A DNA stretch of 50,086 nt, counting the filler, from Jimgerdemannia flammicorona (lineage: Eukaryota), in the NCBI GenBank assembly GCA_003990765.1. It is 2 parts of 2 records of this genome, joined end to end, with 100 filler letters (N's around TTAATTAATTAA, not from the genome) between each part and the next. Parts side by side here need not be neighbours in the genome. Positions count along the whole stretch, not along the records: positions 1 to 25,001 come from RBNJ01000894.1; positions 25,102 to 50,086 come from RBNJ01000895.1. One strand, 5' to 3'. The position numbers and the translations under genes are program-made. Positions 2,729 through 28,631 of the stretch are shown here, piece by piece; position 1 is the first letter of the stretch; each line of letters starts with the position of its first letter. The notes under the pieces were generated by a model that worked only from the letters and a program-made list of their open reading frames with translations, was not told where the DNA came from and did no database searches.

Positions 2729-3826
2729 ATGACCACTGAGATCTACAACTATATCCGCGCTGACATTTGGAATGCCATTGTCAACCGAGCCACACCCCCT
2801 CTGCCTCTCATGAATATCCATAGCCTAGCACCCCTCTACTTCGTGGAAGCCCAATGGAATGCCCTGAATATGTTTAATGAGGCCCACCGGATCGGATAAA
2901 TATTAAGCTACTACCAGATTGGCTGCCTCTTGGAAGACATGGTCGAATACTACCACAATACAGACATTACCCAGATGTCTCAACACCAGAAGCTCATCAC
3001 CCGCAAACATCGAGAACTCTTCTATGAGTACAACACCTTTATTCCCCGCCTCTGAGTCACTACCAGCGAAATGATTGCTACCCTGTCCTATGGCCAAATC
3101 GATGACATGATACAAGAACTCAACCACAAGTACCTCGAATATGTCCAGACTACAGACAGAACCTTCTTGCACCCTGATAACCATATCCTACAAATGCCTC
3201 AAGTCGGATATGCCATGAAGGATGTCTACGATATAATCCACTTCGATGAAGATGAAGCAGAAGACAATAATTCCTCTGATGCTGACATGACCTCAAGCCA
3301 AGGATCTCTGCCAACCCTGATCACTCTGCCAACCTTGCCGATGAACTTACAACAGTTCATAACTGCATATGAGACTTATTGAGACAATGACCACTGGCAT
3401 GAATACCAACCCGCGTTCACCCCCAATTACTTCAATTACAATGAAGAGACCGGAGAACACAACCTGTACCTTCAGACAACCCTTGAGATTGAACCAACCA
3501 CTCTACCACCTGAGTACGAGTGACATGAACCACAGCTGCCAGCTTACTACAATCCTGCAACTCATAGTGCTGTAACCTATAGAAGGTATGCAGACAGTAA
3601 ATCCGATGAAAGCGAAGACAATACACCCATCCTTCGCCCACCAACACCTTATCCAGCCTACGAGACAGACGATGCTATCCTGTGGGACGGAGATGAAGTT
3701 CCAATGTATTACTATCTCAGCCAACAAGGAGAAGTAATCCGCGAACCACTCTTCCTAGATGACTACTTTATCAGAGATGATGCAATCGATGGTGATGTCA
3801 TCGAAGACTACCCAGATAGTGCCTAA
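2729..3826 (+). pseudogene. LTR(U3)-encoded ORF, 365 codons, N-terminal domain plus acidic Pro/Tyr-rich tail, unknown function
   Basis: One frame from ATG 2729 (MTTEIYNY) to TAA 3826 (DVIEDYPDSA*), with no frameshift. It joins track ORFs 2594-2899 and 3071-3382. The four internal stops (TAA 2897, TGA 3053, 3380, ~3521) are each one C>T from CAA/CGA. Confidence 0.8.
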
Positions 3827-3828
3827 GA

Positions 3829-4146
3829 CCTATAAATAGTCTAGCAGTCATAGTATAGATAGATTAGCCTTGTACGACATAACTGTGAACTGACTCAGCA
3901 GTCAGATGATCTCTTGATATGTCAGATCACACTTATACTACGTGACTGTATTCCGACTCAGCAAGGTACTTAGTGCTACATCCATATTCAGCATAGTCCA
4001 GATAGTCCCTCACTAGTATAAATACCCCCTCCCCCAGACCTCAGAATCTCAGACTTGAACAATCCGAACACAACTCCTGAGCACTTCCCCACAATATCCC
4101 TTCACACAACTACTCCTAGTATAGTAATATCATAAATAGCAAATAA
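3829..4146 (+). promoter_or_regulatory. Putative LTR promoter and polyA region
   Basis: TATAAATA at ~3831 and ~4017, duplicated GACTCAGCA modules (TGACTCA at 3891-3897), AATAAA at ~4142. Confidence 0.45.
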
Positions 4147-4505
4147 ATCTATTCCATAATCCACAAACTACTCTTAAGTAAATCCGCTCTCTGTTAGGTC
4201 CTACTCCTAACCCTATCACGAAATTTCCTAATTGGGTATTGTCTGCAGTGATACACTAATTCAACTAAGCTGGTCTTAGTTTCTTGAACTTCCTGAAATA
4301 TGGAAAATCCTGAACATCCAGAACTAGTCCGAAAAAGGACTTTGGTTGAGACGTCAACCTGATCTTGAAATCAATAAGCATAGAGAATGTACTCCATATG
4401 AAATTGATCTTGACCATAAGAAAACAGTCTTCCAGAATATCCAGAATATCCAGAAAACCCTTCCAGAACTATATAACGATTACCCTAAAAAGTAACCCTC
4501 TTACA

Positions 4506-4699
4506 GAGATAGAAATTTCTATATAAATTTTCTACTTAGTCTTCTTAAACTGAATATTATAAAAAATAATTATATAATATTTTTGTAAGTTTTATAGTTT
4601 ATATGCTGCTCTATTATATCTAATTATCTATCTTAGGCTCAAACTTATTTTTATTACTACTTTTATTTAGAATATAAGTCTTACTTCTAAATATATATA
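4506..4699 (-). mobile_element. Degenerate Ty1/Copia fragment (post-integrase region)
   Basis: Minus strand resembles decayed IFGSKAY...KFEPK...GY...AYKL. Continues the Copia integrase at 23339-23840 across the LINE TSD. Confidence 0.65.
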
Positions 4700-5864
4700 T
4701 ATATATATTTTTTATAGTTACTTGGACTTTCTTTTATTACCTCAATCTATAAATAATAATATAATTCTACCTATATTATCTCAACTGATACCTCTTGGAT
4801 CTCTCTCTCTACTCTCTATCTCTCTTTATCAGAGGATAACCCAGTCACCTACTATCCAAATTCTCTTTCTACTTTTCCAGCAAATACAATTCACTAAACT
4901 CTATTGGCTCTCTCTACTCAGTCTCTACCCTCTCTACTAGCTATTCAAAATGTCCAGTAATAGCCATTCTCATCATACCACCCTAGCTCCAATCCCAACC
5001 TACTGATCCTCCTCAAATATATATAACCAATACTCAGCCAGCCTCATCCAAATTGCCAGAGCTCAACTCAGGATCAGCCATTTATCTCCAACCCCTCTCA
5101 CTAGCTTTTGGTGGAGGTCTCTCTATCTTCCCCCTTCCTACCCTACTAGGGCTTACAGTCCTAACTGGTCTACAATATAGTGCCAAAACTTCTCTAAGAC
5201 ATCACACTTGTCAAGCCAATGTTTAGGCATTTGTATCACTCCCTCCTCCTGTCCAACATCTAAGTATTTCTCATACTCAAATATACCAACTACTACTAAG
5301 TACCCAGACTGATAGTTTAATATCACATTTCACCTTAGAAACTGCCACCATATCACCCAGAACTTGGGGAGAAGCTACTGCATCACCTGCTTGCTTCAAG
5401 GCCAAAGACTATTCTAGTTTCACTTCTTACCAATCCCCACTCTCTGCTATGCTTCAGACCACAGATCCCCCCCTAAGCCTCACATATAATCCATTCTATC
5501 ACTAAGCTGGAAATCATCCACCAAAGCACCACCCAGTAGTAGCCTGTTCTATCTCTACATCTGTAGTCTCCAATCTTTCTCTCCCTTATCACTCTGTCAC
5601 TGGAGTCCAATTCTCTTAGCACCATCTACTACTCCACACCAAAAGCTCTTATATTGCATCCTCTTGCTCCTATTTAGGGCCACTATTGTAAGTAGATCTT
5701 CAGATGCTCCACAGGGGGAATATCAGGCCTCCCACACCCTCTGCATGAGTGGTACCCACTCTTGGCTCCTCAACTCACTTGCTCTCTTCAGCCACCATGC
5801 TTGCAAGTAGTACTCTGCAAACCTGACCTGATTAACCTGAAACTCAGCTCATAAAACAGTTAAC

Positions 5865-6185
5865 CCAGAATTAAACATTACCCATCTTTAACCCAACTCA
5901 GAATTATACATCACCCATCTTTAACCTGACCCAGAATTATATATCACCTGTCTTTAACCCAACCCAGAATTGTACATCACCCATCTTTAATCTGACCTAG
6001 AAAGATACATTATCCATCTTTAACCTGATCCGGAATTAAACATAACCTATCTTTAACCTGATCTGGAAATATATATCACCTAACCCATTATTTACCCTTA
6101 ACCCAAACCTGAATCCAACTCTTGAACCTGACTCTGAACCCAATCCCTGAACCTGACCCTAAACCTGATCCTCTGAACTCTGCCT
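5865..6185 (+). repeat. hAT left subterminal tandem repeats (33-bp unit, then 6-bp AACCTG units)
   Basis: About six to seven copies of CAGAATTATACATCACCCATCTTTAACCTGACC-like units, followed by AACC(C/T)G hexamers. Confidence 0.9.
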
Positions 6186-6244
6186 TGAAAAAATGATTCA
6201 TAAAATATTTGGATAATATTTAGAGCAATTAGAAGTAAAAAATA

Positions 6245-8840
6245 TCTGAAGACTACTAAGAATCCAAACACATGCATATACAAATTGTATTTACATATAA
6301 GCTGTTTCAACATTCAGTCACCAGCTCACCAGCAATAGAAAAAATATATTCAGATAGAACAAATATCACTGAAATAATAAGATAATTGTGAGCCATTTGT
6401 GAAAGATTAGAATATACCAACTGATTTTGCCATTATCAATTCAGTATATCTATACAAAGATCAGCTTGATTCTCTGACAAATAACTGAAACAGAGAAATA
6501 TGAGTAAAAATTAACCAAATCAACCAAAAAACATAAAAACAATATACACTATTCAAGCTCATCATCCATATCGATGTACTGTTTCTTCTCATATATTGAG
6601 TTGATAAAATTATTGGTATCATGAAATATTGAGGGTATAATGATAGCATTAACAGACTTATACTCCTTTTACCAGATATGTTCCATCTGATTCTTCTATT
6701 TATTAATTAAGGATTTTTTCCATTGCTTATGATGGAAATAATATATGTTGATACATAGATTTAAGGTCAAAGCTATGCTGTATAATGGTGTCATCTTGCA
6801 GTAATACTTTAGAAGTTTTGTATGTGTATTCTCAGCAGTAGTGAGCATTATCTATAAAAAATAAAAAATAAATGAAAATATACACATATTACTTTCCAAT
6901 TACTTACTAAATTAGTTCCTAAATTCATAAATAAAATTACTTTCAAAATCATATATATATCTAATTAAAATGTTCACCAGTTTGATATATATCAATAATA
7001 TCTTTAAGATGATCATATAGCCAATTAAATAAAGAGATAACAGCTGCTATTGTAGGATACTTCGAAGCTGATATTATAGTTGTCACTTTGATAAAAGGTT
7101 TGAGAAATTGGCAAATAAATTCAAATTGTTGCCATACATCTTTAAATATATTGCTTATTTACTTATCTATGATATATAATATATCCAAGCCCTATTTGGA
7201 TATAATATCAATTTATTTAGTATCAAAATACTTCTGAATCATATTCCAAAATCTATATAAATAGATTCAAAATCTTACCTTATGAATCTCCAGAGCATAT
7301 ACTAATATTTTATATATAGAACTCTATCTCATCATAATATCTAAGAGAGGCTTCAAAATGAGAATTCTGGAGGATTCACTGACCTTCACCAGTTGTGCTT
7401 ATTATTGTACTGAATTTTTGATCTTCTTTATCAACTCTTATAGCTTTCCAATAGGCTCACTAAGAGAACCAAGAGCATCATGAATGATGGGATTTAATAT
7501 ATATCCAAAATAGCATATATAAGCAAGTGGATGATGGAGATTCTCAAACAAAGTATCATTGTTACTGATATTGTCACACACAACAGCAATAATTTGATTA
7601 TCACTAGGCAATAAATCATCTATTACCAGCTCAAGACTTTTTGTAAGATTGGCACCCATGTGTATTATTTTACTAATATTCATAAAGTCTAAGATAATGT
7701 CATACATCTTTCAATCACTGTCAATCCAATAGGCTGTTATTCCAAGAAAGATCTTGATATTAATGTCTGATGTCCAACAATCAAGTATAAGTAATACCTT
7801 CAACTTGAGCCCTGCTAGCCTTGCTTTTACTTGAGTTTGCAATAGTTTGAATTCCTTTCGAATAACTTGCAAAATCATATCAGCTGATAGAAGGGCCAGA
7901 TCAGAGTGTAATATATGAAGGAGATACTTGAAGCCAGTGTTTTCAATAGTAGAGAATGGCTGATATCCAGTGACAATAAAGTTGGCAATTAATTGATGGA
8001 AATTTTCATCACTTAAAGTCTTGCTAGTGTGTTCTTATTTGTAATGATAAAATTTGATGAATTATTTTTCTAATAATCTCCTAAGTACTTCTCAAATTCC
8101 ATTCTATCTATACTTACAATATTATTTTTCTTAGACCAGCAAGGATTCTCAGTATGCTGGAGAGGTAAGAGTATGGTATTGTGATGCTTCCAGAGATGTC
8201 ATTTAAGATTATTGATATTGCTATCCTTCAATATATAGCTCTAAGTCATGCAATGGTTGTAACTGATGAGCTTACTTTGTAAATTCTATTTAAATAGAGA
8301 GATATGAGACTATATTAGAATCTCAACTGCTTACAACTGACCATCCATCCTTATGACTGATGAGACCAATTACTCCTATGAATGTAACCATTAGTACAAT
8401 GTATAAAACTACCTTTGTGGCATAATTCCACATCCAGCTATCATTAGGTTTTGTTTTTATTTTTATTCTTATGTTTGTTGGTGATAACAAACTGGTGGAG
8501 ATATCTGATATATCCTCTAATATATCCTCTGATATATCATCTGATGGTTCTGAGATTTCTCCTAAATATACTTCTTGATCTTTAGATATTTTGAATGTTT
8601 GATGATGGCAGAGACTGAGAGCTTGAGTGGGAGGTTGAGAGCTGAAAAGTGGCTAGAAAGTAGCAAGCTAGAGAGTGGCAAACTGAGAAATGAGCTGGGG
8701 GAGCAGTGAACTAGGGGGCAGGGAGTTGGGGGGAGGTAGCAAGTAGCAAGAAAAGCTAGGAACTATGGGGCCTGGAACAGGAGTCAGCAAGCTGGGGAGC
8801 AGCAAGAGAGAGAGCAGCAAGGTGGTATACAATAGCCAAT
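6245..8840 (-). pseudogene. hAT transposase, intron-containing (start approximate)
   Basis: BED-finger remnants (SWMWNY, NLK*HLWKHH), LDCWTS, VCDNISNN, decayed CxxH (CYFGYILN), R*SS, and a C-terminal dimerisation domain (LSQMAHNYL..SEYIFSIAG..MCLDS). Confidence 0.92.
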
Positions 8841-9256: not shown

Positions 9257-9262
9257 ATGCAG

Positions 9263-9470: not shown

Positions 9471-11049
9471 TTACATTCCACTCCTCTTGCATTTCACTCC
9501 TCTTGTACAACCCTTACATATTTCTTCACCTCCCTTATCCTCTGTAAGAGGGTTGCTTTTTAGAGTAATCATTATGTAGTTCTGGAAGGGTTTTCTGGAA
9601 GTTCTAGATATTCTGGAAGACTGTTTTCTTATGGTTAAGATCAATTTTATATGGAGTATGTCCTCTACACTTATTGATTTCAAGATCAGGTTGACATCTC
9701 AACCAAAGTCCCTTTTCAGACTAGTTCTGGATGTTCAGGATTTTTCATATTTCAGAAAGTTTAAGAAACTAAGACCAGCTTAGTTGAATTGGTATATTGC
9801 TGCAGATAATATCCAATTAGGAAATTTCATGATATGGTTAGGAGTGAGATCTAATAGAGAGTAGATTTACTTAAGAGTAGTTTGAGGGTTATTAAATAGG
9901 TTTATTTGCTATTCATAATATTGCTATACTAGGAGTAATTATATAAAGGGATATTGTGGAGAAGTGTTCAGAAATGTTCTTGTATATTCAAGTTTTCAAG
10001 TCTGAGATTCTGAGGTCTAGAGGAGGGGGTATTTATACTAATAAGGGGCTATCTGGGCTATGCTAGATATGGATGTAGCACTTAGTGCCTTGCTGAGTCA
10101 GAATACAGTCACATAGTACAAGTGTGATCTGACATATCAAGAGATCATCTGACTGCTGAGTCAGTTCACAGTCACATCATATAAGGCTAATCTAACTATA
10201 CTATGACTGCAAAGCTATTTATAGGTTTAGGCACTGTCTGGGTAATCTTCAATGACATCACTATTGATGACATTATCACTGGCAAAGTCTGGGCAGTTTT
10301 CTGACTTTTGATATCATTAGTTTCAAGATGTCATTACTTCTATCTCTTGCAAGATTAAGACTGTCCTTGGTGGCAGTGATTGTATAAAGATAACAGGTCT
10401 TAGTTCTCTTTTTTTTTGGTCTGCTGGCACATTTGCAAGGACTGACCATTCTCGTTTAGGGTGAGGACTCCCAATATTGTAGCTGGGGGTTCGAACTTCT
10501 CAGAAATGATATTTTCTATAATCTGAGACAATTTCTAGTAGTAATATCTATCATGTGGATGGCTTGAGATTGGTTTCAATGATGTCGGCTTTCTTGAGTT
10601 CAGATGAAGCATCTGTCACTCTCCAATAGAGGTGATACAGATAGAGCAAATAGAGTTGTTCAAATGTATTTTGCTTCTGCTAAGTAATGAGATCTTATAT
10701 AGTCACAGTATATCTTGGTCTTGAGTTGATAAGTGCAGTTCATGAACCTTTTGGTAGATAAGATAGGATTCTTCTTATCTCAATTTGAGTTTAGTACTTT
10801 TGGTTTCCTTTTGTAATAGTATAGTATACCAAACTAGTTATAGTAGTTCAGAGTCAGTCTTATGGTTATAGTACTTCTTTTAGTATTCTTGTATCTTGGC
10901 AGTGAGTTCTCGTGCTTGCTGGCATATTTTATGTAACCAGATGATCTCTTCAGTAACTTGTTTTGTAGTCTTGCATGTGGTTTCCAAATTAGTTCTGAGG
11001 ATGCCATGTAATTTTGGTAGCTTGGAGGTTGTGTACTTACAACTCTCTC

Positions 11050-11205
11050 CTTCTTAGCTTTTGATGTCCTTGTCAGGGCCTTCTAATTTGTTCTGGTGTT
11101 GTTGTACCATTTGGATGGTTCTTGTCACTGTATTTGTTAAGGATTTGTTCAACTTTATATTCTTCTTGGTCATTAATAATAACAGGTGCAGGTGGTTCTG
11201 TAGTT
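11050..11205 (-). pseudogene. Truncated chromodomain from the integrase C-terminus
   Basis: EPPAPVIINDQEEYKVEQILN matches the chromovirus PPP..DGEEEYEVE.ILD pattern. Confidence 0.8.
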
Positions 11206-11469
11206 CAGTTCAGAAATATGTCTCGGACCTTCTGGAGTAGTGGTCTGACATAGCTGTTAACTTTGGAAAAGTCTTCTTCAGAGTTCTTGGGTTCTCCTTT
11301 GGATGGGTGGATGGAGATGGCAAAGAGAGGGTATTTCTTGGCCAATTTCTTGAGTTGTAGTTTGTTGATGTGGGTGATCTTTGGTCCAGGGTCACTAGAA
11401 TTGAGTGGGTCCTTTTTGCCTTGCAGTTTGAAGTTATGGCATCCTTTCTTAATAGTCAGAGAATGGTTT

Positions 11470-11790
11470 ACCCTATCAATCATAGGGTTCTCTTGTTTCA
11501 ACCATAGAGTCCTAAGAATGATTTTATTGTCAGGAAGTGGTATGATCTAAAGGATAATATGTACTCGATAGTCACCAATTTGGAAGGGCAGATTGTGGAC
11601 TTCTTTGCTAATGACATGTGAGGTTCCATTAGCTATGGCAACTACTTGAGTTTGTTATACCAGAGAGGTGAAGACCTTGAGTCTGTTGGCTATTTCTTCA
11701 TTGATGAAGTTGCCTGAGGCACTACTGTCTATTATAATCTTGACAGGTGCTCAATTGACAAAGACTTTAAGTATAAGCAGTTTGTCTGAT
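11470..11790 (-). pseudogene. Retropepsin aspartic protease
   Basis: IIDSSASGNFI (decayed DSGA) and IILRTLWLKQENPMID (decayed ILG.PWL). Confidence 0.9.
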
Positions 11791-12001
11791 CCAATGGTGG
11801 TAATTTCAGTTATAGGAGCTTTCCTTCTATTGGTTCTTCTTTGAGTCAATTCGTTAATATAAAAGAAGCAATCATCAATCATTTGGGATGAGTACATTCT
11901 AATACCATAGGGACATCAGCCACTTGGTATATATCCATCTTTGATTTTCTTGTAGAATTGTTCTTCTTTACTCATGGTAGGTTGGGCTGGAGCCTTGTTT
12001 G

Positions 12002-12407
12002 ATGAGCCAAATTCTTTGGATCCTCGGATGGTGGGTAGTAGTTCAGAGACTTCCTTGATTGTTAGAGTTGATTCAATTTTCTCAAATAGGATCTGGGTGA
12101 TGCAGAAACTAATAGGGATCTTGAAGGGTGTCCAACTGTGGTTTTGGATAAGGACAATAATTTCACCTATATAATCTTCATCAATGACTCCCCCTTCTAC
12201 TGAGAGTCCTTTCAATGCTAGGCTGCTGCAACAGTATATTCTTCTAACATGTCCTTCAGAGATTTGGATGCTAATTTCTATATAGACTTACTTGACTTCT
12301 TGGTTGGAAACTGTAACTTCTTCAGCTACATACAGGTCATATCCAGCTGCTTTTTGACTTCCTTTGGTTGGGGTCTTAGTAGTTTGTCTTAACTTGACAA
12401 AATCCAG
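12002..12407 (-). pseudogene. dut: Retroelement dUTPase domain
   Basis: All five trimeric dUTPase motifs are recognisable: AAGYDL, (R)SSLA, GVIDEDY(R)GEI, ITQ, RGSKEFGSS. Confidence 0.93.
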
Positions 12408-12419
12408 TATTCTGGTAGT

Positions 12420-13472
12420 CAGGTTGTTGAGGTGGTGTAGAGTAGTAATAGTTGCTCATGTTGCTGTTCAGGGTTTTCAGTTGGGGCAGGCACTGGCCAC
12501 ATGTCCTGTCTTTTGGCAATAGAAGCATACTCTGCATCTTCAAAGTTCATTCCTTTCTCCTTCAGTGAGTTTCTTGAAGGTACTTGGCTAGGTGGATTCA
12601 TGATTTCTGAGTGTCCATGAGGTGGATGTAGAGGGAGCTCAGGATGCTTCATGCTTGAGTTCTTCCTTTTTGGTCCAAGTCTTTTCCTTATTGTTGAATT
12701 ATCTTTAGGGCAGAATTGGTCCAGCTGTTAGGATTCACTTGACCATGGTCTTGATTCTTGCCAGGCACCATTATTGGTGATCACAACCAACTAGGTGACC
12801 TTGTTCTTAGATTTTTCTAGTAAGCTATTCAGGCAGAGCATTGAATAGATGGTCTGCTCTTGTACCATTTCATACTTCATCATTGGCAATATATTCTAGG
12901 CCAATAGTGTTCAGGAGTGACTTGAGTTTTGTACAGAAGGTTTTGAATTCTTTCTTGCTATGTACATCGAATTTGAGGTTGCAGAGTTTTACTCAAGATT
13001 CGGCAATCATCATTTCGCTGCAGTATTGAGCAATCATGAGTTGTTTGAGTCCAGGGGCTGTAGGATGGGCTCCATATCCTGGGGTATTGTTTGCTGCATT
13101 CTGAGCAACTACTACAGGTTGGGTATCTCATATGAGGGGTTTTTCAGGAAGAGTTTGCCACCATTCTTCAGCAGGTCCTCAGAAGAATATAACAACTCAG
13201 TGGACATAGGCTATAGTAGTAACAAAGAGTTGTTCCAGAGTGTGGTCTTGATTGTTTATCAGAAGGTGGTCAGCAACTTGCTCATTGGTCCATTGGTTGG
13301 CTTCAAAGTTGGTATCTACTACACTAATAAAGCTTTGGACTTCTTGTGCAGTACCATTGAAGGTAGGTAGGCTCAGATTTTTGGTAGGTCGAGTCTATTT
13401 GGCTAAGGCAGTAATGGTTGCTACCATTATAGCTACTTGAGCTATAAGGTCTAGAATCTGTTGGTTTGCCAT
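12420..13472 (-). pseudogene. gag: Gag with CCHC zinc knuckle
   Basis: MANQQILDL.. start, LPTFNG and AEEWW capsid-type motifs, CFYCQKTGHVASAC knuckle at ~12488-12530. Confidence 0.88.
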
Positions 13473-15969
13473 ATTATTTACTGGAGGTGGTTGGACTACT
13501 AATAGTGATATTACTGATACTACTTGAGGTACTGGTGCAGAGTGTGAGGGTGTTCTTTGGGTCTGTATAAGTTACTAGAGTAATAGTTGTGGGTCTGGAG
13601 TGAGGGCTCAATAGATAGCTATTGTTGCTGTATGGGTATATTCTGGCCTGATGGAGGTGCATCTCCTTCAGTGGTATATCTGGGATCAAATTAACTGAGA
13701 TACTCCTCCTCCTCTTCAGTTTGGTCCTCATATAATTGGGTTTGCTCGGCATTGAAGTAGATAGAATCGGTTGTATATCTGATTTCAGATAGACTTAACT
13801 CAAAGTCAAGTTCTGGTTCAGTATTGGTTTTGAGTTCAGGTAAGGCTATAGCAGGGTCTGCTTCTGGTTCTGGGTCAGGTAGTTGATGAAGAGTTTCTCT
13901 TGCTTCTTCTTTAAAAATATAGCAGGCCTTGCTGTTCTGGAATTAGTAGTATAGTGCAGTCTTGGTCCTGGTATGGTGAAAGTCGGTAGAGTTGAGCCAC
14001 TTAGCTACAGAGGCTTAGGCTTCATAAGGGACTAAGGCTAGAAAGACTACTGCTGGTTATCCTAGGTTGCTCAGATTTATGGAGCTGACAAAACTCTTAT
14101 TGAGAAAAGTAAAAAAGGCTTCTATAAGACCTTCTTCATCTTGACTTACTGGGTGTAGTGCAAGGAGTTCAGTGAATAGGGTTTTACCTATTTGCTGATT
14201 TAACTGGAGTATTTCTTTCTTCAAATAAAGTTTGTCCCACTTGTTGCAGGTATAGAGGTCAAATTATCCTTATACATCAGGTTCAATTCTCTCCAGATTG
14301 TCAGATAGTTCAGGATAAATTCCAGTTTAGAGATTGGGCTTTATATCAACTTGTAGGAATTTGCAGAGGGGTTTTATAGCTGGGTGAGAAAACATCTTGA
14401 AGTGGAATTGGATTGTAAACTGCTGCTACCAAGTCGTAAGAGGGTTGCTTTTTAGGGTAACTGTTACATAGTTCTGGAAGGGTTTTCTGGAAGTTCTAGA
14501 TATTCTGGAAGACTGTTTTTTTATGGTCAAGATTAATTTCATATAGAATATGTCCTCTATGCTTATTGATTTCAAGATTGGGTTGACATCTCAATCAAAG
14601 TCCTTTTTCAGACTAGTTCTGGATATTCAGAATTTTCCATATTTCAGGAAGTTCAAGAAACTAAGACCAGCTTAGTTGAATTGGTATATCACTGCAGACA
14701 ATACCCAATAGGAAATTTCATGATAGGGTTAGGAGTAGGACCTAATAGAGAGCGAATTTACTTAAGAGTGGTTTGAGGGTTATTAAATAGGTTTATTTGC
14801 TATTCATGATATTGCTATACTAAGAATAGTTATATAAAGGGATATTGTGGAGAAGTGTTCAGAAATGTTCTTATATATTTGAGTCTTCAAGTCTGAGATT
14901 CTGAGGTCTGGGGGAGGGGTATTTATACTAATGAGGGGCTATCTGGGCTATACTAGATATGGATATAGTACTTAGTACCTTGCTGAGTCAGAATGCAGTC
15001 ACATAATATAAGTGTGATCTGACATGTCAAGAGATCATCTGACTGCTGAGTTAGTTTACAGTTACATTGTACAAGGCTAATCTAACTATGCTATGACTGT
15101 TAAGCTATTTATAGGTTTAGGCACTGTCTGGGTAGTCTTTAATGACATTACTATTGATGACATCATCACTGGCAAAGTCTGGGTAGTTTTCTGACTTCTG
15201 ATATCATCAGTTTCAAGATATCGTCACTTTTATCTCTTACAAGATTAAGACTATCCTTGGTGGCAGTGGTTGTACAAAGATAACAGGTCTTGGTTCTCTT
15301 TTTTTTTGGTCTGCTGGCACATTTGTGAGGACTGGCCATTCTCATCTAGGGTGAGGGCTCTCAATGTCATAGTTGGGGGTTTGAATCTCTCAGAAATGAT
15401 ATTTTCTGTAATCTGAGGCAATTTCTAATAGTAATATCTGTCATGTGGATGGCTTGAGATTGGTTTTAATGATGTCAGCTTTTTTGAGTTCAGATGAAGC
15501 ATCTGTCACTCTTCAATAGAGGTGATACAGATAGAGTGAATGAAGTTATTCAAATGCATTTTACTTCTGCCAAGTAATAAGGTCTTGTATAGTCATAGTA
15601 TATCTTGATCTTGAGTTGATAAGTGCAGTTCATGAACCTTTTGATAGATGAGATAAGGTTCTTCTTATCTTGATTTGAGTTCAGTACTTTTGGTTTCCTT
15701 TTGTAATAGTACAGTATACTAAACTAGTTATAGTGGTTCAGAGTCAGTCTTATGGTTGTAATACTTTTTCTAGTATTCTTGTATCTTGGTGGTAGGTTCT
15801 CATACTTACTAGCATATTTTGTGTAACCAGATGATCTCTTCAGTAACTTGTTTTGTAGTCTCACATGTAGTTTCCAAATTAGTTCTGAGGATGCTATGCA
15901 ATTTTGGTGGCTTGGTGGTTGTGTGCTTATATTCTCATTCCTCAGATTGCAAACAATATGTAATTTAGA

Positions 15970-16080: not shown

Positions 16081-16510
16081 TTATAGCTTTTGAACATTTA
16101 AGATATCGAAAGCTTACTTTTGTCTCTTATTCTTTTCATCTTATCCTTTGCTTTGCCTCGCTTAATTCACCACTATATTGAGAAAATATGGATATGACCA
16201 CCTGGCCAATAAGTATTTACTTGGCCCCCTCCAAGCTCAATACACTTCAGCTCACCATCCCAAAGCTTGGTACTCTAAAGATATCCAGCTTACCAACACC
16301 CAGTCTGCCAAGCTTGCTGATACTCAGCCTGCTGAGCTTGCCAACATCCAGCTCACTGACCCTCAGCTCCCTGATCTCCAGCTTGACCACCAGCTTGCCA
16401 CTGGTCTACAAGCACAAGATCCCCCACCAGATCTCAATAATATAGCTCAAAAAAGTTAGTTTTTTTTTTTTTTCTTTTTAAATCAATGTCTGAATTTTTT
16501 TCCTAATAAC

Positions 16511-17151
16511 TAGTGCTCCTAACAAGTCAATTTAATCCGGATTGGATTTGGATTGATTCAGATTGAATCCCATCCAGATCAACTTGGATGGGATTCGAAT
16601 CCCATCTGGATGTATTCAAATCAACCATTGTTTTGATTTTCAAATTAGACAATTAAATGTTTACATCAATAACTTGATGAATTATCATCCAAATTTGATT
16701 ATCTTAGTGTCATTTGAAAGCCCTTAATAAGGCCTATCTAATGATACCAAGAACATTGAAATCGGATCATGCGTTACTGAGTTATGAAGGAAAACGTCTG
16801 AATCACCAATTTTGGAAATTTCGTCAAATGGAACGTTTTCCTTAATATCTTAGCAACACGTAATCCGATTTTAATGTTCTTGGTATTATTAGAAATGCCT
16901 TATTAAGGGCTTTAAAATAACATCAAGATCATCAAATTTGGATGATTATTCATTGAGTTATTGATGTAAACATTTAATTATCTAATTTGGAAATCAAAAC
17001 AATGGTTGATTCGAATCCATCCAGATGGGATTCAAATCCCATCCGAGTTGATCCAGATGGGATTCAAATCCATCTGAATCCCATCCGAGTTGATCCAGAT
17101 GGGATTTGAATCCATCTGAATTCCATCTGGATTGACTTGTTTAGAGCACTA
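16511..17151. mobile_element. hAT-type foldback MITE, copy 1
   Basis: TAGTGCTC...GAGCACTA termini, perfect 8-bp TSD CTAATAAC, almost fully palindromic. Homologue at 47260-47869. Confidence 0.96.
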
Positions 17152-18650: not shown

Positions 18651-18675
18651 GATTGGCTTGGGTTGTAATATACTA

Positions 18676-21291
18676 CTTACAAGCAATGAAGGTATTTGGT
18701 AAAGTCCACCAAGCCTAGCCCACCTTTGTCCACAGGTAGGGTCAGAATCTCCCATCTTATTTGACTTCACTACCCAGCCCAGATCTATGATCTTGCTATC
18801 TTCAGAAGTCACCTGACTACCCATGCTGGGAAGTCCAGATAATACCCCACATACTATAGCTTTAGCAGCCAATACACATTTAGCACCATCACCCTTCCTG
18901 CCAAGGATATATACCAACCACCTCACCATAAGAGCACATTTCCCCATACTAGGAGTTGCTGTTCCCACCAAGTATAGGGCAGAAGAGACCCATATACTGA
19001 GGAGTAGATCCCTAGATAATAAACTGGATCTCCTGCTGGTATCACCATCTCAATCATATCACTACTAACTATTCCACTGCCTAGCACTAGAGTCTCACAT
19101 TTGTGCCAATTGAGTCTAGTACTGGAGCCCCTCTTATACTATTCCACAGACCTCCTTAATTCCTCCACATCCTCCAATGAATTCAGTCTAATCACCATAT
19201 CATCTGCAAAGGCCCCCACTTTCCAATTAATCTCCAGAATGTCTAAACCCCCAATTCTATACCTGATCCTATCCAAAAGGGGCTCTAAGGAAAGGGCATA
19301 TAGAATGGGTGACAAAGGATCTCCTTGAGACACTCTACAATCAAGTGGAAAAGTTGCACTCCTGTATTGACTACTAATGCTGCCTGACTGTTTTCCAAAA
19401 GACTGATTAATAACCTCCTGAACCCTGGGAGAACACTCATCCATTTCAGCACTCTCTTTAGCCAGATCCTCCTCACTTTGTCATATGCCTTCTCCTAATC
19501 CAGAAATACGAATCTGCCATCAACCCTAGCAGCCCAAATCTCTTCAATCACTCCATGGACCCAGACCATCCTATCTCAGATCAACTGACCACCAACAAAC
19601 CCTCTTTGCTCTACTCCTAGTACTTGCTGAGCAATTCCCTACAGTCTAGTCACCAAGACCTTTGTCACCAGCTTGCAGTCTATATTGAGGAGCATGATTA
19701 GTTATCAGTTCTTTCAATCTTCCCTTCTCCTTTTATCCTTATAGAGCAATGAGACCAGCCCTAGGCACTAGCCCCCAATCCAAGTTTCAGACTGAAGAAC
19801 CTCATCATATATTACTATCATCTCTTCCAATAATACCTCTACTCTAGTCATCTTCTTTCAAAAATTCCAGAGAAGCCTATCCTCTCCTAGAGCCATTCCC
19901 TTGCTTGTTGAAGCCAAAACCTTGCAAATTTCCTCTCCCCTCACTGAGTCCCCCAGAGTCCCCAGGCCTATTGCTGGGTCTGGATGCCAATCTTTCAGCT
20001 ATCATTCAATGTTCAAGACATTCTCACCCTCTTCTTCCTCACTCTATAAGTCCTCACAGCAGGTCCTTAGCAAACTCAGAATCACCAGAGTCCCCACCAC
20101 CATCTCTCTATCCTTATCCAAGAGATCATCCCACTGCTGTTTAGTTTTCTGTACTTGTAATAACCACAATAAAAACCTAGTGGGTCTCTCTCTCTCCTCC
20201 AACCCTTGCCACCTCAGCCTTGCCACTATCCCCTTTAGTTTAACCTCTTTCTCTATTCATATCACTTCCTTAAGCTCCTTAACTTCCTTTTAAATTTACA
20301 CAATATGCCAGTCTGCTACCTCCCAGTTCTCTAGCACCCCTGCCTATCTCCCCAGGAGTACTGCCAATTACTGTGAAGCCCATAGCACTCTCTGCTATCA
20401 CTGAGCACTCCTTTCTTTCCCTGCCTCCCTCCAGTACCTCTGAGCACTCGATTTCAGCCTCTGCCAGTGATCCCCAATCACCAGGCCCTACTTCTGCCAC
20501 TTACCAATTTTCCCAAAAGTCTCCTCCTCTCAGTCTGCCCATAAAGTACTATCCTCTAACAAAGAGGAATTCAGTCACCAATGTCCAGGCCCATCCCCAC
20601 TTCCCCCAAACCTCCCCCTCTCTAACAGACCCCAGTGATCTGACCATGGATACTAAACCACCTCCAGCACAGCCCAGACATCTGCTCTCCAGTACTCTGC
20701 TGTCAATATTCAGTCAATCCTGGAGCTCAGCCCTGCTGCCCAGTAAGTATAAATTTGATGCTCCTTCCAAAACTGTCTCCCTGAATCAACCAAAGAGCTC
20801 AACCTCTCTATCTTCATCCAATCATCTAACCTACTACTTCTGCTCCTCATCTCTCTCCCATCATCAGTTCTGTCTACCACATTATCCTATACCATGTTGA
20901 AATCCCCCCCCAAGCAGTCAATCTCTGCCTCATCCATGGCACTAGCCTCTCTCAAATTTCTGATCCAATCTACCTGTACCCCCCTCTCTGCTAGACAATA
21001 ATAAGACCCAACAGTTAAAGGGCTCTATCTAGGTCTCTTCCACACTCCTCACACTAACTAACTCTCCCAATGTCCAATATCACCAATGTCCCCTATCCTC
21101 TTTCGAACTAGGATACCTACCCACCCCATTCTAGTCCAATCCTGTAGGTCCACATCTACCTCATAATGTATATCCTATAGTAGGAAGAGATCTGCATCCA
21201 ATCTCTTGAGCCAACCAAATATGTGCCTTCGCTGAGCTGCTCCCCTCAACTCATTCACATTTAAAGAGAATATTCTAGTTGTACTATTCAT
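18676..21291 (-). pseudogene. LINE ORF2 (APE endonuclease and reverse transcriptase); C-terminus continues at 5807-~4740
   Basis: MNSTTRIFSLNVN start, GGDFN, EKAYD, VSQGDPLSPILY, GAFADD, GGLGLVDF motifs, with many stops. Confidence 0.92.
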
Positions 21292-21309
21292 ATTGAATAA
21301 TGTTTGAAT

Positions 21310-23160
21310 TTGAAAACCCAGCCTAATATTCCATGCTCATCTCATCCCCAGCCAGATCTAAGTACCACTCAGCTTCCAGGTCACCTTCTACTACAGCCTG
21401 AGCATCTAGTGTCTCTAAGATTTCTTGACATTCTACCCCATCCACCACTTCCATCTCTGCCTAATAATCTGCACAGACCACCTTCCACTTCTCCAACCCC
21501 TTTCTCAATCCCCACAAGTATGCTGTCTGTTCATTCACAATCACCTGAAGTTTCTTCTCCCTCTGATCATCCACTTGATATTCAACTGATTCCAAGAGTA
21601 CTACCAGAATCTCATTTCTAACCTTCCTCAGTACCTCCTCTCCATCTCTCCATAAAGAATTTCCTCCCAATGCCTCTCTTCTATAATCTGGAAGTCCTCT
21701 CCCTCCAGCTCCTCCACTGCCACCCCCTTCAGAGTCTTCCACAGCTACTTCTCCTTGTCCACCACCTCTGCTACACTCTGGGCAATCTGCTCAACTCCCA
21801 TCTCTGGGTCCACCAAAGTGCTCCTCCTCACCAACTCATCCCACTCCTCTTCAGGTATATTCAGTAGTTTCTCTTCACTCTCTGCCCCACCTGGGACACT
21901 ATATTGAGAGTGTGCTTTCTCACTCATTTCCATGTCTGCCTCCATGCTGCTCTATCTCTCCTCTCTCAATCTACTCTGGGCCCTACCTTGAGCCATCCTG
22001 TATTCCCTCACTCAGGCACTCTCTCACAGTCCTGCTCCCCCTTCCCCTATACTACTATCAGTTCCACTACCACCCAACTTCTCTAGTAGCTCCTTCTGGA
22101 TTCACCTCTCCTGCATCTTCTTTCAGGTCACCCAGTCCATCCTGATCCTCTTTCCATCTATCATTTTCACCACTATCTTGGCTTCATACTTCTTTCAAGC
22201 CAAACTCCTCCTCTCAACTACTCCTGTCAGATCCTCAAGAGTCTCCAGCAAATCCTCCTCCTCTTCTAGAGTTCCTTTTACCTGCAAGACCTTATACTCC
22301 ACCAGTCTCCACTTCAGAGTTGCTGGCCAGTCTCTCATCTTCCTCATATTCTCCTTTCCTACCAGCCTCACCCAGATGTTGACATTACTAGTCTAGAGCT
22401 CTGTACTCTCCCAGACTCTGAACTCAATGTCCACAATCTCCTCATACTCCTTAACCACCTCTACAATCAACTCTCTGACCCTCTTCCTTAATATCATAGA
22501 AAAATCCAACACTATCAGCTATATTACTTGGGGGTCCCAGTATATGTACCTGGCCATAGGAACTACCACCCTGCCCACTATTATCTCTTTCTCCATAGCT
22601 GCCAATAATGACACCTCTTCCTTAAACCCAACCTCAACCTCTTCTTTCTCCTTCAAGAACTTTACCAAAGTCACCCCCTTTGCCTCCTATACCACCAGCC
22701 CCAAGATCATCTTTGCAGTCACTGCTATGCCCCAGAAATATAATGTAACAGCGAATTCTGACCTTGATTTCTTAAGTAATAGTGCCGACACCATACCTGT
22801 CACACTATCCACCAGGTCTCCAGGCCTCATGGCCACCCTCTGTCCTGATCCACCAACTACTGTCACATCTGGATTTTTTTCCAGATCCCTAGTCACAGCT
22901 CTATTAGCAGTTACATCTCCAGTCCCTACTCCCCCCTCTTCCCTACTGTCTGACCCTCCCATGGGGGCCCCTCTCTGTCTCTCAATAGTAGCAGTTGATG
23001 CCTTCCCTAGGCCCAGCCAACTATCCAGGCCAGAAGCCATTCTCCCCATCTTGACCTTATTCACAAAGGTCATTCTCTCTCCTCTATATTATCTCAATCT
23101 GCCTCTGCCTCTTCCTCCTCTACCAGCACCCCAGCCAGCCATAGAAGACCCTGGTATTTC
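21310..23160 (-). pseudogene. LINE ORF1
   Basis: Lies between the 5' UTR and ORF2. Homologous to ORF1 of the other three copies (LLKKSRSEFAVT.., WEGT motif). Confidence 0.8.
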
Positions 23161-23338
23161 CAAACTATCACTTCTCCTCTTCTCTACATACTGCCAGTCA
23201 AAGGCACTACTACCCCCCTGGCTGACATGCTCACCAGTATAATTATTGCTGTCTATATTACTAGTTGCCTTTCACCAAAAATACTATAGAAAGTATTGTC
23301 TGAGTCTTGTATCATCTGAATATTACTGGTGAAAGGTA

Positions 23339-23840
23339 TTACTTCTAAATATATATAGATGTGAAATATCAGGTTTAGATCTACTCTATAATTCTTCAGA
23401 AGTAAGATTAGTATCATTCTTAAATTGTTGATTATTATTAGATTCTTTGCTTAAAACTTAAGAAATACAATAATTTTGGATATATACTACTGTATTCACT
23501 GCTTTAGTCCAAAAGAAGTATAGTAAGTCAGCTATATTTATCATTGTTTGAGCTATCTCTTCTATTATTTAATTAAAGTATTTCACTATACTATTCTACT
23601 AAGATATATAGAGAGCTATTATAGAGTATTAGATACTGTAATTTTTTAAGAAGTATCTGAAAGCTTTGTTGATATATTTTTTATTATTATTTGAGTATAA
23701 AGTCTATATCTTATATATATTCCATTTTATTCTTTATAGTTTCAGAATTTCTCAAATATCTCATTCTTTACTATAAGATAGTATATATAGACTTTGTAAG
23801 TATAATCATTAATAAAGATAATAAAATATCCAGCTCCTTT
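23339..23840 (-). mobile_element. Degenerate Copia integrase core
   Basis: Decayed DNGGEY (DNNKKY), QQNG.AER, FWTKAVNTVVYI, SKPDISHL.IF. Confidence 0.85.
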
Positions 23841-23843
23841 CTC

Positions 23844-25001: not shown

Positions 25002-25101
25002 NNNNNNNNNNNNNNNNNNNNNNNNNNNNNNNNNNNNNNNNNNNNTTAATTAATTAANNNNNNNNNNNNNNNNNNNNNNNNNNNNNNNNNNNNNNNNNNN
25101 N
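25002..25101. other. Artificial assembly gap linker
   Basis: 44 N + TTAATTAATTAA + 44 N = exactly 100 bp. The 12-mer gives stops in all six frames. Confidence 0.97.
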
Positions 25102-25132
25102 AAAAAAATAAAAAAAAAATAAAAAAAAAAAA

Positions 25133-27437
25133 CCACCTCTTTAATATACATATACTATACTAGAAAAATCAAGTAATAATTGATTTAGTAATATAAATAT
25201 ACCAATTATGAGCATTTCTACAGGTGTAACCACAATAGATATAGGTAATACAGTCTTAGTTATAAGTATAAAAATAGCTAAGAGATATATCCTGATCTTT
25301 AATAAAAAAGATTATATCATTTAGATATTTTATATAATGAATCTTCTTAATGAATAGAGTATATAAAGCTGCAAGCACTGAGTGAAGATTATGATACTAT
25401 AAATTATTACTAAGTACTATACAAGATTATATTCATATTGTTGAATTCTCAAATAAAGCTTATAATATATACTATAATGGCTTATAAGATATGAGAGACT
25501 CTATATAATCATCACATATAAGTATCTATATCAAATTGATTCTATCTGAAATCTTAGCTATTTAATATATTAATAAAGCCTAAGAAGAGTATCTATAAAT
25601 ATACTAGTCATATCAAGTGAATTTTCTCAATATATCTACTAATTATATTAGTAATAAAGATAAGGTTATAATACTCACAAGAGAACTTCTGAATATATAT
25701 AATATTATTGTCATAGCTATGTATAAAAGTGATGGATTCATAAACTATACCAATATGATAATAAGTCTCAAAAATGAGAAAATATAATAAGAAAATAGTG
25801 GTGACAATAATAAATCTTCTATGAGTCCTGCAGATATAGTATTAAATGGGATCAAAAGTATAGGCAATAATAAGGCCAATGAATCTAAATCTAAAATTAA
25901 TATAATAGTAGTCAATCAACTAAGTATGATAGCTATTGTAAATTCTGCAGTAAGTATGGATATAGGAAATATCATTGTTATTACTGGAAAAATAACAAGG
26001 AGAGCAGTGAAAATAAATAATAATGTAAAAGCCAGTATTGATAATATGAGAGTAGTAGAAAGAACTATTGAGACAAAGAAAAGTATAGTAATGTAAATAT
26101 TGCTATAACTGATAAAAATAGTAATATATTCTTTATATAAGCAATATATATAGATAATAGTTCTACTGCCAAATCTATCAACTTATTATCTACAAATCTT
26201 GATCAGTAAAATACTTTTTACCTAATGAAAAATAGTAATGACATCAGTACTACTAGTAGTAAAAATACCAATACTGCTAATAATAATAATATTTAACTAA
26301 TAAATTCTAGAGCCATATAATATATGATACTATATAGAGAATAGTTCTTTATATATGAGTCTTTTGAGTACTCTGTATCTATTAAGCTAGGAGATAACAA
26401 TATCATCTAAAGGAAAATATAGAGATACATCTTTATGGCAATATTGTAAAATCTGCTAGTATCTTCTTAACTCCAAAAATTAGTAAAAATCTCTTTTTAA
26501 TAGACAAGATGATATTCTATGACAATAAAGAGATATATATATATTCAAAGAATACAATAGTATGTATATAATTTAGATAATAATAAATTAATGATAGTCT
26601 CAAAATATAACAATCTTTATATGATCAATAGCATACTAAATAGTATAACAGCCTCTGTATATGTGACAATTATACCTAATATATTCAATACATAGTATTA
26701 ACACTTAGGATATATTGGAAAATTAAGCCTCAGAAGAATGATCTGAAGTGACTCAATAAATGGATTACTGATATATATATATTTAGAGGATAGCTTTTAT
26801 AAAGTATGTAGAGAAAACAAAGCTTTCCAGCAATCATTTAAGGAATGATTAAAGTATATATCTGGGATTCTCAACTTTATATATATAAATATATATAGGT
26901 TAATATATATACTATTATACTCTAGAAAGAAATATTTTATCATATTTATTAACAATTATATATATAAAGTATATATATACTTCCTATTAGTAAAGAGTAA
27001 AGTCTTGAACAAATTCAAAGAGTTCAAAGCAATTACTAAGAATGAGACAGAATGTAAAGTGTACACTATATACTCAGATAATAGATATAAATATATCAAT
27101 AATATATTCAAGCAGTTTCTGAGAAAATGTGGTATATATCATTAAATAATAACTCCTTAAATATTTTAGCAGAATGGTATGGTCAAGTGATTCAACTATA
27201 TGGCCATATAAATAGTATATATAATGATCAATACTACAGAATTAAGATATTTATACTGAGCAGAAGTAATTAATACTATAGTATATATATATATATAATT
27301 AGTATATATCTAAAGTACTAAGTAAAGATTCTAGCAATAATAGCATAAGAATAATAATCTTATCCCTGAAGAATTATAGAGCAGAACTAAGTCTGATATA
27401 TCACGTCTATATATATTTAGTTACAAGGTATATATAT
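25133..27437 (+). mobile_element. Highly degenerate Copia (gag, protease, pre-integrase, integrase)
   Basis: Decayed IDSGAT.HM (~26300), WH.RLGH (~26690), YFIIFI, SDN..EY, QNG, AEVINT, K.DISRL.IF motifs. Similar to the reverse complement of 31250-33240. Confidence 0.85.
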
Positions 27438-27569
27438 TGTGACATATGCAATTGACAACGGAGTACCGGTGACTGCTAAGATCAGATGACATAATGGCGT
27501 GACAATCAAATAGACAGCCTGACCCATTAGGTGATCATCCCAAAAGAAGACAAGATGATCTGAGCCAAA

Positions 27570-28631
27570 ATGAAGACCATGTTATTTAAGGAACCATACT
27601 CCACCTCAGGGATCGGCACCAAAGAACCAAGTACCCATCACACAATGCCTCCCATTTGCCGATCCAACCAGACCTCCCGCTGCTCTACCCCTTTGTCTGG
27701 CCCAAAGACCCTGATCTTTGAAGCTATCAAGAAGGCCATTTGGCACCCAGATACTTCCGAACACTTGAACTTCTACACCAAGGACCTTGGACACTTCATC
27801 AACTACCAGTATATAATGACCCAGCAGCTCAAAGACACTACCAAACGAATGACCCTCTGGTATGACTACGAAATCGGACACTGCCTTTGCAATGAGACTC
27901 AAGAAGATGACTGGGAAGGCCTCATTACTGAATTGATAACCACTAGCTGGCTAATCAAGAGAGCCCTCCATGTCCATCTAATCTTCTGCCATATTCCCTA
28001 GGCCATAGCATACTTGCAAGGAGTAACAGCTGGCAGCCTCTCCCACCTTTCAACTGAAGATGCTGACTGGATAGAATCTGAAGTAGCCAACTCTAGTGGC
28101 AGCAACTGCGTCGCCGTAGGAAGCCAACAAACCAAACCCACTCAGCCAGGTTTCCACACTACCCCACTCCGAGACAACCATCAAGGTCACCTAATGAGTC
28201 TTATGGAGATATTTGAAGGTCCACCCATTACCATAGAAGCACCCGTTAGAGCTACCCCAACCACCCACCATCCTGTCAGCCACAATTCAAATCTCATCAT
28301 TTGGGAACTGAATCAAGAAGAAGCCCAAGAAGTCCCTGTCTTTGAAGAGGAAGCCCAAGAACTCCAAGACCCTGCCCCTGAAGAAACCCCCTCTGACACT
28401 GAAACTGACGAGTTTTCAGAAGAAGAAGAGGAGCAACAGAGAGTCTACCAGTCCTCTGTCTGCATTCAAGCTGTTCAAGGGTTGGAGAATGTTGTTGAAG
28501 ATGACTGGCCACTTTTCTACCCCCTCACCTCTTGGCCAGCGCTTCCCCCTTTTGAGGAGAAGTATGATGAAGAAGAAATCTTAACCCAGCAAGATTTGCC
28601 CACTGCGGACGAAGGGTACTATTTCCTCTAG
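27570..28631 (+). pseudogene. LTR(U3)-encoded ORF, 353 codons (or from ATG 27645), N-terminal domain plus acidic tail
   Basis: Track ORFs 27570-28001 and 28014-28631 are the same frame, separated by one TAG (one transition from CAG/TGG). Confidence 0.8.

Follow-up and report, generated by a model that had tools for sequence, protein, structure and literature searches.

Whole genes inside long terminal repeats (LTRs) are textbook knowledge for a few complex retroviruses. The sag gene of mouse mammary tumour virus (MMTV), also called the 'LTR ORF' (open reading frame), has ∼320 codons located inside the U3 (unique 3') region upstream of the LTR promoter, and every LTR carries it; to our knowledge, it is the only retroviral gene that lies wholly within U3. 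The foamy virus tas/bel1 and lentiviral nef genes are accessory genes at the 3' end that extend into U3, and the foamy virus Tas protein, which activates its LTR, has a C-terminal acidic activation domain and is served by an internal promoter of its own. Here we describe two frames, ORF1 and ORF2, within a 50,086-nucleotide stretch of the Jimgerdemannia flammicorona genome (assembly GCA_003990765.1) that joins parts of two records and is referred to below as the window. ORF1 lies in the U3 region of a retrotransposon LTR, and ORF2 may occupy the same position in an LTR of a second family.

Extra ORFs beyond gag-pol, often without known function, have been described in plant LTR retrotransposons (aORFs; PMC7264820), and in bdelloid rotifers extra ORFs are shared across unrelated retroelement families, some of which also have a dUTPase (PMC5408684). 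Whole genes inside LTRs are absent from the available portions of both reviews: a term search gave no occurrence of 'in/within the LTR' in the available text of PMC7264820 and none of 'within/inside/into the LTR' in that of PMC5408684. A phrase search of the open-access literature for LTR-borne ORFs, which was limited and does not prove absence, returned only MMTV papers and unrelated uses.

Both frames were proposed in a first-pass annotation of this DNA, at 2729-3826 (366 codons) and 27570-28631 (354 codons), and both exist. The start given for ORF2 is probably not the true one, as its relatives begin at a Met at 27645, 25 codons further on, and their alignment makes this the more likely start. 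The two frames are:

2729-3826 (+ strand): ORF1, 365 codons plus stop; a predicted helical N-terminal domain of ∼140 residues, then an acidic tail
27645-28631 (+ strand): ORF2, counted from the start that its relatives share: 328 codons and a stop; internal stop at 27999

When translated with an X at each stop break, the ORF1 frame held four internal stops (2897, 3053, 3380 and 3521) and the ORF2 frame, from 27570, one (27999), each in addition to the final stop. Chance open frames in skewed, stop-poor DNA would be favored by the composition of this strand, which is poor in T and G and so yields fewer stops, yet mononucleotide shuffles that preserve this composition gave 17.4 ± 4.0 stops against the 5 observed for ORF1 (2000 shuffles, P 0.0005) and 15.7 ± 3.7 against 2 for ORF2 (0 of 2000 shuffles as low). 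The remaining frames of the two stretches contained 7–31 stops. As relatives of the window frames also match at E-values of 5e-152, 3.5e-98 and 5.4e-67, an origin by chance is extremely improbable.

Relatives were sought in 5.8 billion protein clusters. For ORF1, a 128-residue protein with the same Met start and 88% identity (P0018) was found among the shorter proteins, and a 247-residue protein (P0003) spans residues 115-365 at 63–64% identity; together they are open at all four internal stops of ORF1. For ORF2 the search gave P0001 (325 residues, 75% identity, E 5e-152; its cluster has six members) and P0002, and the open relatives P0001, P0004 and P0008 measure 324–331 residues at 75–77% identity to the window copy. 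All five internal stops of the two frames are open codons in at least one relative, and at the ORF1 stop at 3053 most Logan contigs differ from the window copy. Because such relatives with open frames exist, ORF1 and ORF2 are, on the evidence of sequence comparison, decayed versions of real genes that belong to no described family.

At E ≤ 1e-3, a phmmer search with P0001 against 1.84 billion representatives returned 10 proteins. They include diverged members with open frames (P0009, P0010, P0011, P0015 and P0016; 27–46% identity), which share the first ∼200 residues, and a hidden Markov model (HMM) of the superfamily matches the window at 27708-28529 with an E-value of 1e-94. Judged by these alignments, ORF2 belongs to a diverged superfamily that extends down to 27–35% identity and includes P0001, P0010, P0011, P0015 and P0022. 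Its members combine a conserved helical N-terminal domain of ∼190 residues with a disordered tail that is acidic and rich in Pro, and have a short hydrophobic motif close to the C-terminus; along the alignment, conserved blocks are separated by variable linkers, and the start is conserved. Every relative derives from an environmental record of JGI/IMG or ENA, and no NCBI or UniRef name is attached to any of them, which fits genes lying in masked repeats. Scans of JGI metagenomes for relatives of P0001 and of family alignment A2, and of viral contigs with A5 and A4, gave no loci, and the ESM Atlas returned no usable match for P0001 and unrelated rows at 0.90–0.93 for P0018.

The first-pass annotation had recognized no domain in either protein, and this was borne out: neither window ORF matched a Pfam family at E ≤ 1, including the Sag, Tas/Bel and Nef families, and no Pfam, PDB or fold match was obtained for the ORF1 and ORF2 proteins. 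At the same threshold seven of eight relatives had no Pfam match, and the eighth had a 13-bit glycosyltransferase match (E 0.089). The long acidic tails described earlier were also found (net charge -38 in ORF1 and -30 in ORF2).

The window copies differ from their relatives mostly by Arg-to-Cys/His/Trp changes, and in one run (X1) transitions made up 210 of the 226 kinds of difference among copies. This dominance of transitions, along with the many Arg-to-Cys/His/Trp differences, points to ordinary CpG decay. Repeat-induced point mutation was tried as the cause and rejected, with TpA/ApT of 0.71 and 0.77 and (CpA+TpG)/(ApC+GpT) of 1.32 and 1.40 in ORF1 and ORF2, respectively, judged by the customary thresholds.

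ORF1 had been placed wholly inside an LTR and upstream of its TATA box, and this holds. The features of the long LTR and of its retrotransposon family in the window are:

2426-2503 (+ strand): end of the internal region (end of the pol frame, last 78 bp); matches 11119-10977 of the other strand at 82.5%
2504-4505 (+ strand): long LTR variant, 2,002 bp, with TGTAAG...CTTACA ends; single copy in the window, a 3' LTR
2652-2659 (+ strand): TATATATA, candidate ORF1 promoter, ∼70 nt before the ORF1 start
4017-4024 (+ strand): LTR promoter TATAAATA, 190 nt past the ORF1 stop; cover starts ∼46–70 nt downstream
884-2357 (- strand): short 5' LTR, without the ORF1 body; the associated interior (1-883) is cut off by the window edge
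9543-15929 (- strand): element of this family with an internal deletion; 3' LTR 9543-11041, interior 11042-14435, 5' LTR 14436-15929
12480-12533 (- strand): gag zinc knuckle (Pfam zf-CCHC, E 3.5e-4)
12000-12377 (- strand): dUTPase (Pfam, E 1.8e-27)
11442-11795 (- strand): aspartic protease (Pfam RVP_2, E 3.2e-7)

The segment 2504-4505 is a bona fide LTR, with TG...CA termini, copies that share its sequence, a polypurine tract (PPT), a primer binding site (PBS) and gag-pol domains in its family. Positions 2504-2566 match the first 64 bp, and 3765-4505 the last 741 bp, of three shorter LTRs, while the intervening 1.2 kb is the body of ORF1, which begins 225 nt in from the 5' end of the LTR. The PPT (2483-2502) directly precedes the long LTR; 2426-2503, PPT included, corresponds to the last 78 bp of the interior of the neighboring element, whose stretch before the 3' LTR is 11119-10977, and the translated interior of that element shows the same peptide end. 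In four of four public runs, Logan contigs at least 85% alike cover the ORF1 body and end at ∼4505, and one contig loose end at 4503 runs on into TGGTAGCAGCAG, the same PBS that stands beside the 5' LTR at 14436. The LTR is a 3' LTR with a truncated interior and itself has no target-site duplication. The two LTRs of the internally deleted element (9543-11041 and 14436-15929) are 90.2% identical over 1,496 bp and that element is flanked by TCCTC and TTCTC (4/5 alike). Its zinc knuckle, dUTPase and protease share one frame of the 3.4-kb interior, the sole interior of the family within the window, from which reverse transcriptase (RT), RNase H and integrase have been deleted. No RT of the family was seen, and protease type and domain order suggest that the ORF1-bearing LTR belongs to a Ty3/Gypsy-type element.

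The dUTPase of this family stands between the gag zinc knuckle and the protease (11442-12533, - strand), an order that recalls betaretroviruses. According to the available part of PMC5408684, dUTPase-bearing retrotransposons are known from basidiomycetes and bdelloids, and in the basidiomycete elements the dUTPase lies between protease and RT.

The three short LTRs (∼1.48 kb, all on the minus strand) carry an unrelated 0.68 kb in place of the ORF1 body, with at least 8 stops per ∼270 codons; in the LTR at 884-2357, the frame corresponding to ORF1 has 8 stops in 271 codons. All three retain the final 19 codons of ORF1 together with its stop (..DVIEDYPDSA; 1554-1610, 10230-10286 and 15120-15176, - strand), which, as read from these alignments, places the breakpoint of a U3-module exchange inside the coding sequence. 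Apart from these 19 codons, no further copy of ORF1 or ORF2 was found in the window.

The public sequencing runs that contain this DNA include soil metagenomes, and none is listed as RNA. The boundaries within the long LTR were placed with the help of two runs guessed to be RNA (X19 and X20), for which depth is the summed depth of Logan contigs. Depth rises from 24 and 12 (bin 3938-4016) to 1072 and 4358 (bin 4096-4174), respectively, and a sequencing-adapter loose end abuts position 4069 in the RNA-like runs. R (repeat) therefore begins near 4070 and ORF1 lies entirely within U3: the LTR divides into U3 at ∼2504-4069 and R from near 4070, with AATAAA at 4142-4147. The R-U5 (unique 5') portion at 4096-4490 was 1,000–5,700 deep, and all of U3, including the part common to every LTR variant, 0–24. 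Full-length genomic RNA gives equal cover of U3 and U5. Since U3 cover falls far under that of U5, most LTR transcripts seem to be short, or to begin at solo LTRs and read into the flanks. Over ORF1 itself depth was 0–21 against the R-U5 peak of ∼1,000–5,700 in the RNA-like runs, which shows neither expression nor silence, and no transcript start appeared in the region of 2652-2659 among the RNA-like contigs.

ORF2 lies in an island of distinct base composition, on the following features:

27438-29795 (approximate; + strand): island of ∼2.36 kb, 37–49% GC in surroundings of 20–23% GC, with TGTG...CACA ends
28723-28859 (+ strand): 54-bp tandem repeat in 2.5 copies, lying past the ORF2 stop and ahead of the TATA box
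29039-29046 and 29065-29070 (+ strand): TATAAATA and AATAAA, the former 407 nt past the ORF2 stop

The tandem repeat would be enhancer-like, and ∼700 bp of the island extend beyond the AATAAA. ORF2, as annotated at first, was also said to lie wholly inside an LTR; this is plausible for the island but does not reach the certainty of the ORF1 case. In our estimation the island is slightly more probably than not the solo LTR of a second family, with the same layout as the LTR of ORF1.

An AT-rich repeat (20–23% GC) occurs around the island and elsewhere in three pieces, 25126-27420 (+), 31245-33226 (-) and 23345-23829 (-). Two of its copies share an endpoint, which adjoins the ORF2 island in one case and the 5' end of an RT-bearing element in the other, and the opposite end of the repeat is masked by runs of N (25002-25045 and 25058-25101). 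The shared endpoint may reflect a hot spot for insertion or be the genuine terminus of another element.

Whether ORF1 and ORF2 are related was first proposed from three motifs, which proved to be collinear at the spacing originally given (44 and 46, then 32 and 35 residues): IWNAI, YQIGCLL and an F-block at residues 13, 62 and 98 of ORF1, and IFEAI, YEIGHCL and FCHIP at residues 49, 100 and 139 of ORF2. A recount of the ungapped 34-residue block gave the same 8 identities, and self-comparison of the window found no nucleotide likeness between the ORF1 LTR and the ORF2 island. The claim of homology at the protein level stood in part: for the window pair alone the likeness is within chance, and it goes beyond chance once intact relatives and profiles are used. 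Local alignment of the window copies gave z-scores of 0.4 (whole) and 1.4 (N-terminus) in a shuffled control (1000 shuffles), and global alignment of the N-termini, chosen beforehand, gave 3.0. With relatives, BLASTP paired P0018 with P0010 (E 0.001), P0018 with P0001 (E 0.017) and P0010 with ORF1 (E 0.008), all in the register of the three motifs; these are single-pair E-values from about five such comparisons.

Comparison of family alignments with hhalign gave a score of 16 and a probability of 0.23% for the shallow families (A1/A2), a score of 21 (E 0.048) for A3/A2, 32.2 (E 0.0011, probability 20%, 125 columns) for A3/A4 and 27.4 (E 0.0064, probability 5.9%) for A5/A4, the largest set. With intact relatives included, E-values ranged from 0.0006 to 0.006 and probabilities from 5.9 to 28% over 107–127 columns, again in the motif register. 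The observed score of 30.6 was reached by none of 200 column shuffles (mean 12.8, standard deviation 2.6, maximum 22.1) and by none of 90 shuffles of 12-column blocks (maximum 19.2), and the observed score of 26.0 (A5) by none of 90 block shuffles (maximum 17.9); a reversed-family control scored 16.5. The check by family HMMs is thus split, with hhalign linking the families above shuffles and the HMMER profiles failing to detect one another. On these profile comparisons, remote homology between the first ∼130 residues of ORF1 and the N-terminal domain of the ORF2 superfamily is probable, without being secure.

Our preferred reading, that both frames are decayed real genes carried inside the U3 of long LTRs, stands at about even chances, and a number of observations weigh against it. 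Some favor two real, element-borne genes that are unrelated, the shared layout and likeness having arisen by convergence or from the habits of helical proteins. The window pair reached a best BLASTP E-value of 0.41, with the N-terminal alignment in question at 16.9 bits (E 0.94); the score of 13 for the 34-residue block was reached at 143 other offsets; the shallow-family probability was very low and the HH-suite probability of homology never exceeded 28%; and the largest alignment, A5, scored below A3. In HMMER searches A5 found no ORF1 at E ≤ 10 and A4 found ORF2 at an iE of 6 only. ORF1 has Q (YQIG) for the E of the invariant E76-I77 pair of the superfamily (YEIGH), and of the near-invariant H116, P118, I121 and L135 of A5 it keeps I and L and lacks H116 and P118 (the FRHxP block). 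Against two unrelated genes stand the same register, obtained independently from three BLASTP pairs and from hhalign, scores 6–10 standard deviations above column and block shuffles (0 of 380 reached them), and a higher hhalign score whenever the intact ORF1 relative P0018 was included; we hold this explanation to be unlikely. For ORF1 as a gene, no full-length open copy was seen in one sequence, the two relatives being partial; the long LTR was seen once in the window, as a 3' LTR; and the listed ORF1 variants (25; 40 of 387 variants shown) fall on codon positions as 12/3/10 (chi-square P 0.069), a weak sign of constraint.

Other points bear on the carriers. ORF1 alone could be LTR-borne, with the ORF2 island a multicopy stand-alone gene or part of some other mobile element. 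The island is unique in the window, with no second copy, PBS, PPT or internal region there; its flanks, TATAT and (C)TATAT, are off by one base and form a weak duplication that can arise by chance in TA-rich DNA; and an AATAAA 19 nt after the TATA box would equally suit a plain 3' end of an ORF2 mRNA. Yet the island has sharp edges and TGTG...CACA ends in its AT-rich setting, its 54-bp repeats, TATA box and AATAAA are ordered as in U3-R, the sequence past the poly(A) signal is U5-like, and the layout parallels the proven LTR, the distance from the TG end to the ORF start being 207 nt for ORF2 and 225 nt for ORF1, so that we consider a non-LTR island rather unlikely. It is quite unlikely, in turn, that the ORFs are mere passengers, that is, captured pieces of host genes or recombinant U3 modules still open because their LTRs multiplied recently. 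The modular U3 would suit passengers, as would the lack of the ORF from three of the four family LTRs in the window, the low cover of ORF1 relative to the R-U5 peak in the RNA-like runs, and the failure to find a domain that reveals function. Passengers do not explain open members down to 27–35% identity with conserved blocks and start, which need long-term coding selection; nor was any host-gene relative found among NCBI- or UniRef-sourced proteins, and closely similar contigs cover the ORF1 body in every run.

Predicted helix positions and a common layout of near-neutral N-terminal domain and acidic tail count in favor of relatedness. A model of P0001 (14 sequences) predicts a helical domain at residues 20-151, with block values of the predicted local distance difference test (pLDDT) of 56–90, and disorder elsewhere. 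The AlphaFold model of ORF1 (3 sequences) has a pLDDT of 30.7 and is unusable for superposition, which also counts against the case for relatedness; at this low confidence it places helices within residues 2-141, at places aligned with P0001, and the arrangement of a helical N-terminal domain and an acidic Pro-rich tail would be present in ORF1 as in the superfamily. In all members checked the N-terminal part is near neutral (isoelectric point 5.3–7.3), and the tails carry a net charge of -14 to -38 (isoelectric point 4.1–4.4, 6–14% Pro), with an acidic run near the C-terminus followed by a P-L/M/W-hydrophobic motif (by eye). As the N-terminal domain is not basic, direct DNA binding is not suggested. 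Nor do the RNA-like runs, in which U3 cover is at least 100-fold below that of R-U5, lend direct evidence to a trans-activating or anti-silencing role.

Reverse transcription copies the stretch from PPT to R into both LTRs, so a gene in U3 would be copied along with each LTR and would remain in solo LTRs, of which the ORF2 island, if it is one, would be an example. Ordinary scanning of genomic RNA cannot translate a gene in this position, so that it needs either a subgenomic RNA or a dedicated promoter. The frame might be translated from a subgenomic RNA in which it is the last ORF toward the 3' end, or from a transcript that starts at a promoter within the first ∼200 bp of the LTR and ends at the LTR poly(A) signal; the resulting mRNA would measure ∼1.1–1.5 kb. 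A transcript from TATATATA to the LTR AATAAA would be ∼1.5 kb long, a length in the range of the contigs that encode the relatives. The protein could then serve the element in trans, with specificity provided by its helical domain and an acidic, hydrophobic-studded tail recruiting a host factor for LTR activation or relief of silencing, the two roles put forward in the first-pass annotation. Such recruitment in trans, whether for transcriptional activation or for silencing relief, is a doubtful proposal for which the odds are poor. Equally speculative, and in our judgment unlikely, is the broader idea of a U3 gene superfamily of soil-eukaryote retrotransposons that moves as a U3 module between unrelated LTR families, can be expressed from every LTR, solo copies included, and encodes a factor with a helical domain and an acidic tail that acts in trans on LTR transcription or host silencing.

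If true, this would give retrotransposons an equivalent of the regulatory genes found in complex retroviruses. A U3 gene copied in each cycle and kept in solo LTRs could leave a genome holding hundreds of potential expression units, and, if the two families are related, the gene would have been exchanged between LTR lineages, arguing for a selectable function. Proteins of this kind are missing from reference annotation and are present only as environmental 'hypothetical proteins', which repeat masking would explain.

The remainder of the window is a nest of mobile elements. A Pfam scan of 139 stop-free pieces of at least 75 residues matched only one dUTPase piece and three reverse-transcriptase pieces. 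RT-bearing copies lie at 18674-23335 (-), 34000-40100 (-) and 41517-50086 (+); their coding strand is very G-rich and C-poor (GC skew about ±0.4–0.54 over kilobases), RVT_1 is their sole Pfam match, and an endonuclease-like motif was seen by eye upstream of the RT. The copies at 18674-23335 and 41517-50086 were tried as Gypsy elements with a 2.15-kb LTR and rejected on the same two features, and a non-LTR element is more likely. The first 1.1 kb of this element is found in tandem at 41517 and 43669 (66% identity). A unit of ∼0.6 kb at 16502-17087 and 47260-47878 is palindromic or foldback-like, since the two copies match whether compared inverted (92%) or direct (81%); one copy sits inside an RT-bearing element, just before the RT domain. 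A decayed hAT-type transposase occupies ∼6300-8700 (-), with a DCWTS...ITAYWID motif in read-through (by eye) and a match to the hAT dimerization domain at ∼6309-6480 (E 6.6e-4, below the Pfam cut-off).

Among known systems MMTV sag is the nearest in arrangement, since ORF1 too is a whole protein gene in U3 upstream of the LTR promoter. It differs in that sag is a gene of a vertebrate retrovirus whose product is a membrane glycoprotein superantigen without sequence relation to ORF1 or ORF2, whereas the carrier here would be a Ty3/Gypsy-type retrotransposon and the protein has a soluble-looking helical domain and an acidic tail. Foamy virus tas, with its acidic tail and own promoter, supplies the working model for ORF1 and ORF2; yet tas/bel1 and nef overlap U3 only partly and start upstream of the PPT, no similarity to ORF1 or ORF2 was found, and the N-terminal domain of the ORF1/ORF2 family is not basic. 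The aORF and ORF3 genes, as far as the available portions of their sources go, are found in the internal region, either ahead of gag and behind the 5' LTR or in the stretch that separates pol from the 3' LTR, whereas ORF1 starts 225 nt inside the LTR and past the PPT. The crapaud element of Podospora has LTR subfamilies whose differences are restricted to the 5' half of the LTR (U3), ahead of the TATA box; the 3' half is conserved, and recombinant LTRs occur (PMC10787394, available portion). The LTRs of the ORF1 family are alike in being variable 5' of the TATA box and conserved in the 3' half, but the crapaud variable part is less than 200 bp and non-coding in the portion of that source at hand, and here a closed 0.68 kb alternates with 1.2 kb containing a 365-codon gene. 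What is new in the present case is the retrotransposon carrier and the undescribed protein family encoded; U3-embedded accessory genes as such are a kind already known from retroviruses.

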